Shown: positions 38,250 to 39,836 of the stretch, in pieces
Numbering within the stretch: position 1 is the first letter of the stretch
How the letters are laid out: each line of letters opens with the position of its first letter
Assembly: GCA_963826215.1 (NCBI GenBank)
Contig: CAWGWL010000037.1
Span: forward strand, 27,921-91,920
Direction: 5' to 3'
Length of the DNA: 64,000 nt
From: an uncultured Chloroflexia bacterium
Lineage (GTDB): Bacteria; Chloroflexota; Anaerolineae; Anaerolineales; Villigracilaceae
Program-made: the position numbers and the translations under genes
The notes under the pieces: generated by a model
What the model saw: only the letters and a program-made list of their open reading frames with translations
What the model was told of the DNA's origin: nothing
The model's database searches: none

Positions 38250-39836
38250 TTAGTTCGCTAAATACTGTTTTCCGATGCCCGACACCAGTGCATCAAAGGC
38301 GATGTGGATCCTGGCATAATTGCCGTCGCGGTCAAGTGCAATCCCGCGCCCGATGCCGGTGACAACCTGACCCACTCCGATCTCGTCCATCTTGTGTTCC
38401 AACATCTGCAACAAATCTGGAGCGCTGCCAGGTTCGGTGCTTCGCCCGTCGAATATGACATGCAAGAAAACCTCATTAAGACCACGTTCTTTCGCCATTT
38501 TCAAGAGCGCCAATGGGTAGTCAATCGAACCATGAGAACTTTTTTCTGTGAGCAAGCCAATCAGATGGAGGCGTTTGTTTCGCAATTTGACATCATTGAT
38601 CGTTTTGCAGAGAATCTCATTGCTAAAAAATGAACCGTCCTGCATGGCCAGGTCAAGGCGAACGTCATCCTGCAGGACGACGCGCCCGGCACCGATATTC
38701 ATATGGCCGGCTTCCGAATTCCCCGCTTTACCCGCTTTCAATCCCACTGCCTCGCCAGCAGCCTGAAGCTGGCTACAAGGGTAGCGATTAAGCAGATCAT
38801 CCCATACAGGAGTTTCGGCGAGAAATATTGGATTGGTATCATCTTGACTGCCAATGCCCCAGCCATCCAGGATGACCAGAATCACCCTTCGCTTACCACC
38901 CCAGTGGTACTCAATTACCAGGTTTTTGCCTGACATGACGGCTGGTTGAGCTATATCAAGGGCTGATAAAACCGTTGGCGTTACATCTGCCAACATCCCC
39001 TCTTTCAGACGGACGGGAGCGGATGACCGTGGATCGATCAAAAGGAAAGGAACCGGATTGGTTGTATGCGCCACGTGCGGAGTGCCATCCGGGTTGGTCA
39101 ATAATTCCAGGTTGCCATGATCGGCAGTGATAAGAACAACGTAATCTGAAGCAAGGGCAGCCTCCACCACAAGCCCCAAACGATGGTCCACCAGCGATGC
39201 GCATTGAATCTTGGCTTCCCGATTAGCCGTATGGCCAATCACATCACCATTGGCAAAGTTGGTCACTATCAGATCATATTTCTCTTCGATACCCTGCAGC
39301 ACACGCCTGGTAACCTGAGCCAGGCTCAGCTCAGGCACCTTGTCAAAAGGAATGCCCCTGGGAGAGGGGATACGCACTTGATCCTCCCCGGCGAACGGGT
39401 GGTTTTCTCCCCCATTGAAGAAGAAGGTGACATGGGAGAATTTTTCAGATTCAGCCACTCGAAGCTGGCGCAGGCCTGCCCGGGCAACCAATTCTCCCAA
39501 TGTATCATGAACCCTGGTTGGGGCGAATGCCACCGGAAGATCCTTGAACTTGTCATGATAGAGAGTCAGGATGACAAAACTCAGGTCAGAGAGATCTGGC
39601 CGTGCGAAGTGGTCGAAACCCGGTTCAGTAAAGGCTTCGGTTAACTCTATTTCGCGTTCACCGCGCCGGCAGCAGAAGATTACGGCATCGCCATTTTGTA
39701 TTCGGCCGATTGGATACCCTGGCGCACTGGTCAGCACGACCGGTTCGAGGGAATAATCCGACTGTCCGGCTGCATACAATTCCCTCACCGCACCAGCCAA
39801 TGCAACGGCACCCCGGGGAAGATGATTCTGCAACAT
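38250..39836 (-). CDS. GpmI-like cofactor-independent phosphoglycerate-mutase family protein with circularly permuted domain order
   Basis: One uninterrupted ORF. Residues ~20-315 carry C-terminal iPGM motifs ([47 protein letters not shown]). Residues ~322-530 carry N-terminal iPGM motifs ([32 protein letters not shown], FDGRS). GGAGG 4 nt before ATG 39836. Confidence 0.7.
   Translation of the reverse strand: [528 protein letters not shown]

Follow-up and report, generated by a model that had tools for sequence, protein, structure and literature searches.

We report that a gene within a 64,000-nucleotide stretch of an uncultured Chloroflexia bacterium (GenBank assembly GCA_963826215.1, contig CAWGWL010000037.1, positions 27,921 to 91,920; the whole stretch is hereafter termed the window) encodes a whole-chain circular permutation of cofactor-independent phosphoglycerate mutase (iPGM), a textbook glycolytic enzyme and drug target. 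In the product of this circularly permuted iPGM-like gene, cpPGM, both segments of the iPGM chain are present in swapped order and occur once each; the comparison of sequences therefore confirms a true circular permutation. Below, we describe the permuted chain, the family to which it belongs and its remodeled substrate pocket, and weigh what the enzyme may act on.

Swapped iPGM segments in a single open reading frame

Counted from a TTG start, the cpPGM open reading frame (ORF) extends without interruption over 38250..39857 on the minus strand. The likely start, however, is the ATG at 39836, giving a product of 528 amino acids that is identical to the database protein P0001. The gene is laid out as follows:

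38250..39836, minus strand: cpPGM, 528 amino acids plus stop
39841..39845, minus strand: ribosome-binding site GGAGG, five bases upstream of the ATG at 39836, read from the sequence
38913..39788, minus strand: residues 17–308, comprising the rest of the transferase domain (about residues 1–110) followed by part 2 of the phosphatase domain
38895..38912, minus strand: linker EYHWGG of ~6 residues, the gap between both aligned stretches, leading from the old C-terminus to the old N-terminus
38262..38894, minus strand: residues 315–525, comprising part 1 of the phosphatase domain, in which the Ser nucleophile is found (GNSEAGH), and then part 1 of the transferase domain

In a phmmer search against the PDB, residues 17–308 aligned with residues 220–510 of the Geobacillus stearothermophilus iPGM (1EJJ; 222.9 bits) and residues 315–525 with residues 3–213 of the same protein (161.6 bits), and we saw neither a duplicated segment nor an embedded intact canonical copy. 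The GpmI family model TIGR01307 likewise matched in two swapped stretches rather than colinearly from N- to C-terminus, with a summed score of 497.7 bits (cut-off, 330.65) and the best stretch placing residues 15–307 on profile positions 215–504. The stricter model NF003897 scored 401.8 bits, below its cut-off of 862, and the ApgM family model TIGR00306 reached 36.7 bits against a cut-off of 320. As for the Pfam domains, Metalloenzyme scored 213.6 bits and iPGM_N 160.1 bits, the latter being split into profile positions 137–216 at residues 14–94 and positions 3–131 at residues 396–524, with Metalloenzyme in between. A previous, sequence-only reading of this DNA had proposed a permuted GpmI-type homologue in one ORF, and the phmmer and TIGR01307 alignments bear this out; its suggested check, a split of iPGM_N across both protein ends, gave the anticipated result, and the new termini indeed fall within the substrate-binding (transferase) domain, at canonical positions ~213/220.

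Mapping the domain limits of the C. elegans iPGM (phosphatase, 27–95 and 339–538; transferase, 96–338; PMC8113725) onto cpPGM, we found the phosphatase domain to be contiguous (about residues 111–383) and the transferase domain to be formed from both chain ends, with both inter-domain crossings of iPGM kept. An AlphaFold2 (AF2) model of cpPGM had a pLDDT of 93.9 and a pTM of 0.87 and, when submitted to Foldseek, matched solely iPGM structures (E about 1e-21). The sequential Foldseek alignment was half-length (about 298 columns, TM 0.46), as expected because the chain is permuted. Residue conservation and predicted structure together show cpPGM to be a two-domain, two-metal phosphoserine phosphotransferase of the iPGM fold, predicted to be functional.

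With canonical GpmI (TIGR01307; PDB 1EJJ, 1O98; EC 5.4.2.12), cpPGM shares about 41% identity over both segments, the same two Pfam domains, the same Ser nucleophile, both metal sites and—D154 excepted—the Arg/His/Lys substrate binders. Unlike canonical GpmI, it is cut within the transferase domain at ~213/220, a short linker bridging the old termini, has D154, N259, F260, G121, V122, S124, and Y186 of the pocket replaced and resides in a neighborhood that is not glycolytic. The metal core of the alkaline-phosphatase superfamily is common to cpPGM and ApgM (PF10143 / TIGR00306), whose inserted domain is different. A natural circular permutation that leaves the three-dimensional active site intact has been described for PGM3, a phosphoserine phosphomutase (PMC5570346). 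The fold of PGM3 is unrelated, however, and its permutation concerns ~60 residues within one domain, whereas that of cpPGM concerns the whole chain. In the literature searched, including a recent survey of 338 iPGAMs, no permuted iPGM came to light, in agreement with the sequence-only reading. The iPGM fold is known and so is its chemistry; what is new is the topology and the pocket, and the role of cpPGM has probably not been described either.

A multi-phylum family with an altered substrate pocket

The sequence-only reading had also suggested a search for orthologues with the same order, and this search placed cpPGM in a large family. At least 120 protein clusters at 70–100% identity had the full-length, colinear cpPGM order. 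A scan of a genome collection (one genome per species) retrieved 80 Anaerolineae loci with cpPGM, including that of the isolate Levilinea saccharolytica KIBI-1, one complete metagenome-assembled genome (MAG) chromosome and long-read MAGs, and a further 80 loci were found in metagenomes. The KIBI-1 orthologue lies at about 67950-69500 of NZ_LGCM01000037.1. Altogether, the permuted order was present in ~170 independent loci, which stem from numerous studies and were sequenced with different technologies. When 1.84 billion representatives were searched exhaustively, 15 full-length permuted clusters at 50% identity were among the best 150 matches, the other full-length matches among these 150 having the canonical iPGM order. 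All permuted representatives had an identical cut point with linkers of variable length (8–14 amino acids), and sequence conservation across the family was strong. Named permuted members derived from Limnochordia, other Bacillota, Candidatus Desulfofervidus, and one Pseudomonadota-labelled MAG. In NCBI annotation, 'hypothetical protein' is a frequent label for complete members, and fragments are called phosphoglycerate mutase. Judged by these sequences, the existence of a widespread, multi-phylum family without a name is solid.

This breadth also bears on whether cpPGM might have arisen by faulty assembly or represent a pseudogene or a tandem-duplication remnant. A frameshift in a neighboring permease gene of the window (see below) could be taken to favor such an explanation. 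However, the cpPGM ORF is intact and matches P0001 throughout, both segments are single and well conserved, and the same junction and termini recur in the ~170 loci. Mis-assembly is ruled out by the recurrence of the junction in the isolate genome and in long-read MAGs, and a duplication remnant by the single copy of each segment; conservation thus refutes this explanation, to which we assign a negligible probability.

To place the permuted proteins relative to canonical ones, we computed a neighbor-joining (NJ) tree on sequences restored to canonical order, 19 of them permuted. Sixteen of the 19, including cpPGM of the window, formed one clade with a bootstrap of 97/100 (group 1). The remaining three (group 2: P0132, P0138, and P0140) were found among canonical enzymes, to which they are about 50% identical, and joined group 1 in 1/100 bootstrap replicates; the tree is compatible with one as well as with two permutation events. 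One group 2 member, P0140 (locus L086, 5556–8626), begins inside the pgi stop region with housekeeping genes around it, and its pocket is canonical: apparently, this is a glycolytic iPGM in permuted form.

Fourteen residues—D12, S62, H66, H123, R185, R191, R261, R264, K336, D403, H407, D444, H445, and H462—are invariant in both groups, and the seven ligands of both metal sites (D12, D444, H445, and the Ser nucleophile S62 at one; D403, H407, and H462 at the other) are so in 135 permuted sequences (for the metal-ligand identities and the binding of phosphoglycerate by His, Asp, and Arg, see PMC5382265). R153 is kept in all Anaerolineae-type close homologues and in 13/15 of the other permuted representatives. 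Other parts of the pocket differ between canonical enzymes and group 1:

canonical GVHS, group 1 SSHG
canonical DGRD, group 1 DGRS
canonical FNFRxDRA, group 1 CCRRGERE
canonical ETEK, group 1 ESEK
canonical Y186, group 1 G

Residue 154 is Ser in all 120 close homologues and Asp in 117 of 119 canonical sequences. N259, present in 117/119 canonical sequences, is replaced by Cys and F260 by Arg in 120/120 close homologues, and G121, V122, and S124 are replaced in cpPGM as well. Consequently, cpPGM lacks the complete canonical phosphoglycerate-binding set (D154, and N259/F260 beside R261). The group 1 signature SSHG/DGRS/CCRRGER/ESEK almost never occurs in canonical iPGMs; the signature of the window protein was matched exactly by 137 of the 167 permuted genes from fetched loci, including those linked to a homologue of cyclic 2,3-diphosphoglycerate synthetase (cDPGS; see below). 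That the GGVHSH and FRPDR motifs differ had been noticed by eye before and holds in register (SDGGVHSH to TEKSSHGS; FYNFRPDR to FCCRRGER). In one point, the earlier reading needs refining: the three group 2 proteins have the same cut point and segment order as group 1, yet retain GVHS, DGRD, FNFRxDRA, and ETEK. Permutation and pocket change are therefore separable, and the cut is not what caused the latter. The change in group 1 looks like a shift in specificity.

Gene neighborhoods and the candidate substrate

In the window, cpPGM is part of a minus-strand array with the order HAD1-HAD2-cpPGM-ApgM-PRK1-PRK2-HAD3-MFS-RpiR-permease-ATPase-SBP-HAD/HAD-HAD/TIM-DUF47-PiT (SBP, substrate-binding protein), seven HAD domains being encoded in this locus:

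40612-41343, minus strand: HAD1 hydrolase, upstream of cpPGM
39861-40607, minus strand: HAD2 hydrolase, upstream of cpPGM
36976..38250, minus strand: ApgM-type cofactor-independent mutase (NF003160, 550 bits against a cut-off of 468)
35669..36919, minus strand: PRK1, a P-loop kinase of the PRK/uridine-kinase family with an uncharacterised N-terminal domain of ~190 amino acids
34465..35679, minus strand: PRK2, a paralogous kinase, 59% identical to PRK1
33677..34468, minus strand: HAD3 hydrolase
32410-33720, minus strand: MFS transporter, located, like the RpiR gene, between enzyme and ABC genes
31387-32268, minus strand: RpiR-family regulator, syntenic in 81 loci
29522-31358, minus strand: fused permease of a PhnS2/AfuA-like ABC importer
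28427-29509, minus strand: ATPase of the same type of importer
26979-28286, minus strand: SBP of the same type of importer
22248..26786, minus strand: downstream conserved genes, encoding a HAD-HAD fusion (486 amino acids), a fusion of HAD and a xylose-isomerase-like TIM domain (561 amino acids), a DUF47/PhoU-like protein, and a PiT phosphate transporter
41532..42638, plus strand: divergent LacI-family regulator, in 48/80 loci

A non-glycolytic setting beside an ApgM-type mutase had been claimed from the letters; both points hold, the ApgM neighbor being confirmed by its NF003160 score. The ATG of ApgM overlaps the stop codon of cpPGM as TAATG, and the two genes adjoin in 63 of the 80 Anaerolineae loci. 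At least one HAD gene directly precedes cpPGM in all 80, one or both kinases are found in 69, the ABC permease and ATPase are linked to cpPGM in 64, and the RpiR gene is syntenic in most. The arrangement downstream of the SBP gene (22248-26786) is syntenic in many Anaerolineae loci. The permease gene of the window is frameshifted near 30170, tblastn matches continuing in another frame. In L001, the orthologous gene (DNA identity, about 93%) is an uninterrupted ORF of 615 amino acids; the frameshift reflects either an indel introduced by sequencing or recent pseudogenization.

The PRK-like kinases are named 'uridine kinase' by JGI and 'hypothetical protein' by NCBI. Their conserved N-terminal domain of ~190 amino acids had no match in Pfam or the PDB, be it by sequence or by structure. 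We considered the kinases as analogues of cDPGS or of 2-phosphoglycerate kinase (2PGK) and found no support for this: in NCBIfam and PDB searches and in AF2 plus Foldseek comparisons (the latter done on database homologues), similarity of the C-terminal domain was confined to PRK, PanK, and uridine kinase.

In loci from outside Anaerolineae, cpPGM is repeatedly accompanied by the same type of ABC importer, composed of a PhnS2/AfuA-like SBP, a fused permease of ~550-620 amino acids, and an ATPase. At 12 loci from at least four subclades, this took the form of compact GntR-cDPGS-SBP-permease-ATPase-cpPGM cassettes or of a cDPGS gene just upstream. The cassette cDPGS homologue is full length and scored 388 bits (E = 5.5e-115) against the Methanothermus fervidus enzyme (PDB 8ORU). 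cDPGS and cpPGM are the sole enzymes in these cassettes, and 2PGK is absent there. The importer of the window is related to that of one such cassette (L085), the permeases being 41-45% and the ATPases 50% identical. Since they combine a regulator and an importer and are devoid of 2PGK, the cassettes look like uptake and utilization units, judging from gene content.

In archaea, 2PGK and cDPGS (PDB 8ORK, 8ORU) form the pathway to cyclic 2,3-diphosphoglycerate (cDPG), described as biosynthetic and exclusive to thermophilic methanogens (PMC10690619). Relatives of group 1 are co-encoded with close homologues of this cDPGS and, once, with a 2PGK domain; unlike the archaeal pathway, the cassettes are bacterial, importer-linked, and without 2PGK. 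In the cDPG literature searched, we found no mention of bacterial cDPG catabolism or of bacterial cDPGS homologues. The single 2PGK domain belongs to a protein of 2206 amino acids (L087, 424-7044) on a Desulfofervidus-like contig, which combines a PEP-synthase-like PPDK_N domain, the 2PGK domain, and further P-loop regions; a group 1 cpPGM gene begins before the end of its gene. In three Actinobacteria-labelled MAGs (L172, L173, and L174; 7001-9320), we observed a Metallophos-cDPGS-2PGK arrangement among housekeeping genes such as thr, rho, and prfA, the 2PGK scoring about 325 bits to NF003259. These loci have neither an importer nor cpPGM. By its gene content, this arrangement looks biosynthetic and suggests that bacteria may make cDPG. 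Because such importer-free cDPGS-2PGK pairs look biosynthetic, the cpPGM cassettes would be not biosynthetic but something else. On another contig of 25 kb (L089), two group 1 copies (7001-8548 and 14522-15548) flank an ABC importer, and two GDPD genes are present.

Based on pocket and neighborhood, we tentatively favor the reading that cpPGM is a non-glycolytic enzyme whose substrate is a phosphoglycerate derivative of higher negative charge, 2,3-bisphosphoglycerate (2,3-BPG) being the likeliest, and stems from an imported organophosphate. A more negatively charged substrate is suggested by a pocket with one Asp less and one Arg more and with an intact Arg/His/Lys cradle, and by the linkage to importer and cDPGS. 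Under this proposal, cpPGM would no longer serve as the glycolytic mutase of 3-phosphoglycerate (3PG) and 2-phosphoglycerate (2PG), and the linked ABC importer would bring in an organophosphate as the source of its substrate. In the other bacteria, this compound would probably be cDPG, which the co-encoded cDPGS homologue, running in reverse, could open to 2,3-BPG. One phosphate of 2,3-BPG would move to the active-site Ser, from which it would be either set free or handed on, and the remaining 2PG or 3PG would enter glycolysis. At the Anaerolineae locus, neighboring steps would fall to ApgM, the HAD phosphatases, and both PRK-like kinases.

A more far-reaching version, which is possible but which we consider doubtful, holds that group 1 enzymes are 2,3-BPG-specific phosphatases or phosphotransferases that complete a bacterial scavenging of cDPG released by Methanobacteriales. 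The order of events would be import by the ABC system, ring opening by reversed cDPGS (or, in Anaerolineae, by a putative analogue), and the loss of one phosphate, which would yield 2PG or 3PG. Methanobrevibacter and Methanobacterium, whose habitats overlap those of Anaerolineae, Limnochordia, and Clostridia, are rich in cDPGS homologues.

Several observations weigh against the 2,3-BPG proposal. By tblastn, neither the 64-kb window nor the 80 Anaerolineae loci (L001-L080) contained a match to a cDPGS or 2PGK homologue, and the kinases of the window resemble uridine kinase and PRK in fold, not cDPGS. The Anaerolineae SBP is about 27-33% identical to that of the cDPGS cassette L085, and the imported ligands may therefore differ. 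The reversibility of cDPGS is an assumption, and D154, N259, and F260 presumably contact the substrate in canonical enzymes (1EJJ, 1O98), in line with their near-invariance. Finally, in six Limnochordia loci of group 1 (L081-L083, L098, L102, and L126), the gene carries the same pocket signature and follows rapZ and a cold-shock gene; a phosphohexomutase comes next in 5/6 of them, with no importer nearby. Such a setting would also fit a housekeeping mutase.

This leads to the view that cpPGM is simply the organism's plain cofactor-independent 3PG to 2PG mutase in permuted form, its pocket changes reflecting neutral or compensatory drift on a long branch. All catalytic and most substrate-binding residues are kept, the TIGR01307 score of 497.7 bits exceeds the cut-off, the canonical-pocket permuted P0140 directly after pgi is evidently glycolytic, the Limnochordia context of rapZ and phosphohexomutase has a housekeeping look, and a dedicated mutase could feed 2PG to 2PGK or cDPGS. 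We nevertheless hold this view to be unlikely. The D154 and N259 that are near-invariant in 119 canonical iPGMs have been swapped clade-wide for another set that is itself equally invariant across group 1, arguing for selection rather than drift. Moreover, the gene resides in regulator-controlled loci with an importer, a second plain mutase would be redundant given the equivalog-level ApgM in the same operon, and the cDPGS cassettes have no 2PGK and no need of a second mutase.

Divergently from the window array and following the LacI-family gene, a plus-strand gene set (42655-52034) encodes UxaE, a D-mannonate oxidoreductase (381 bits), and a LarA-like putative hexonate epimerase (below the cut-off), along with a PfkB kinase, a Zn-dependent alcohol dehydrogenase, a TIM-barrel protein, and a GFO/IDH/MocA oxidoreductase. 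Its 6-phosphogluconate dehydrogenase (6PGDH) is short (344 amino acids) and matches positions 1-330 of the 476-position model alone. From its annotations, this set may constitute a hexuronate-to-gluconate route with a nickel-pincer epimerase. UxaE, the mannonate oxidoreductase, the LarA-like epimerase, and 6PGDH accompany cpPGM in 25-36 of the 80 loci.

Given this co-occurrence, cpPGM could instead be a phosphomutase whose substrate is a larger phosphorylated sugar acid, for instance a phospho-hexonate with its phosphate at position 2 or 3. The PRK-like kinases, to which no substrate is assigned, would form this compound from the products of the divergent hexuronate genes, and the exchanges Y186 to G and V122 to S would widen and polarize the pocket. 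But the same pocket signature occurs in cassettes and phyla without hexuronate genes or kinases, UxaE and LarA genes are absent within 10 kb in more than half of the Anaerolineae loci, and what accompanies the family across phyla is the ABC importer rather than the hexuronate genes, all of which renders a phospho-hexonate substrate quite unlikely.

Even less probable, in our estimate, is a broad organophosphate phosphatase that serves phosphorus scavenging, has lost the re-transfer half-cycle and has no link to bisphosphoglycerate. The HAD domains, the PiT/DUF47 pair, and the organophosphate-type importer at the locus would suit such an activity, as would the GDPD genes near some family members and the alkaline-phosphatase-superfamily fold. 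A generic phosphatase, however, would not need the full transferase-domain set of glycerate/carboxylate-binding Arg and His residues, which is invariant, and the regulators found are of the GntR, LysR, LacI, and RpiR types, not of the Pho type.

Implications for protein architecture and anaerobic communities

As a natural permutation of a whole chain, cpPGM indicates that the two-domain, hinge-closing architecture of iPGM tolerates re-threading, and permuted and canonical iPGM form a ready-made pair for folding and engineering studies. Anaerolineae are dominant in digesters and sediments and poorly understood. The permuted clade with the altered pocket is very common among them, and annotation pipelines list it under 'hypothetical protein' or simply as phosphoglycerate mutase, so that reconstructions of metabolism may err at this point. 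The linkage to an importer and a bacterial cDPGS raises the testable idea that a solute so far ascribed to methanogens alone serves bacteria as a nutrient. If true, methanogens in digesters and sediments would cross-feed a metabolite to Anaerolineae, Limnochordia, and Clostridia. As cultured Levilinea saccharolytica KIBI-1 possesses the whole locus, tests of this idea would be feasible in that organism.

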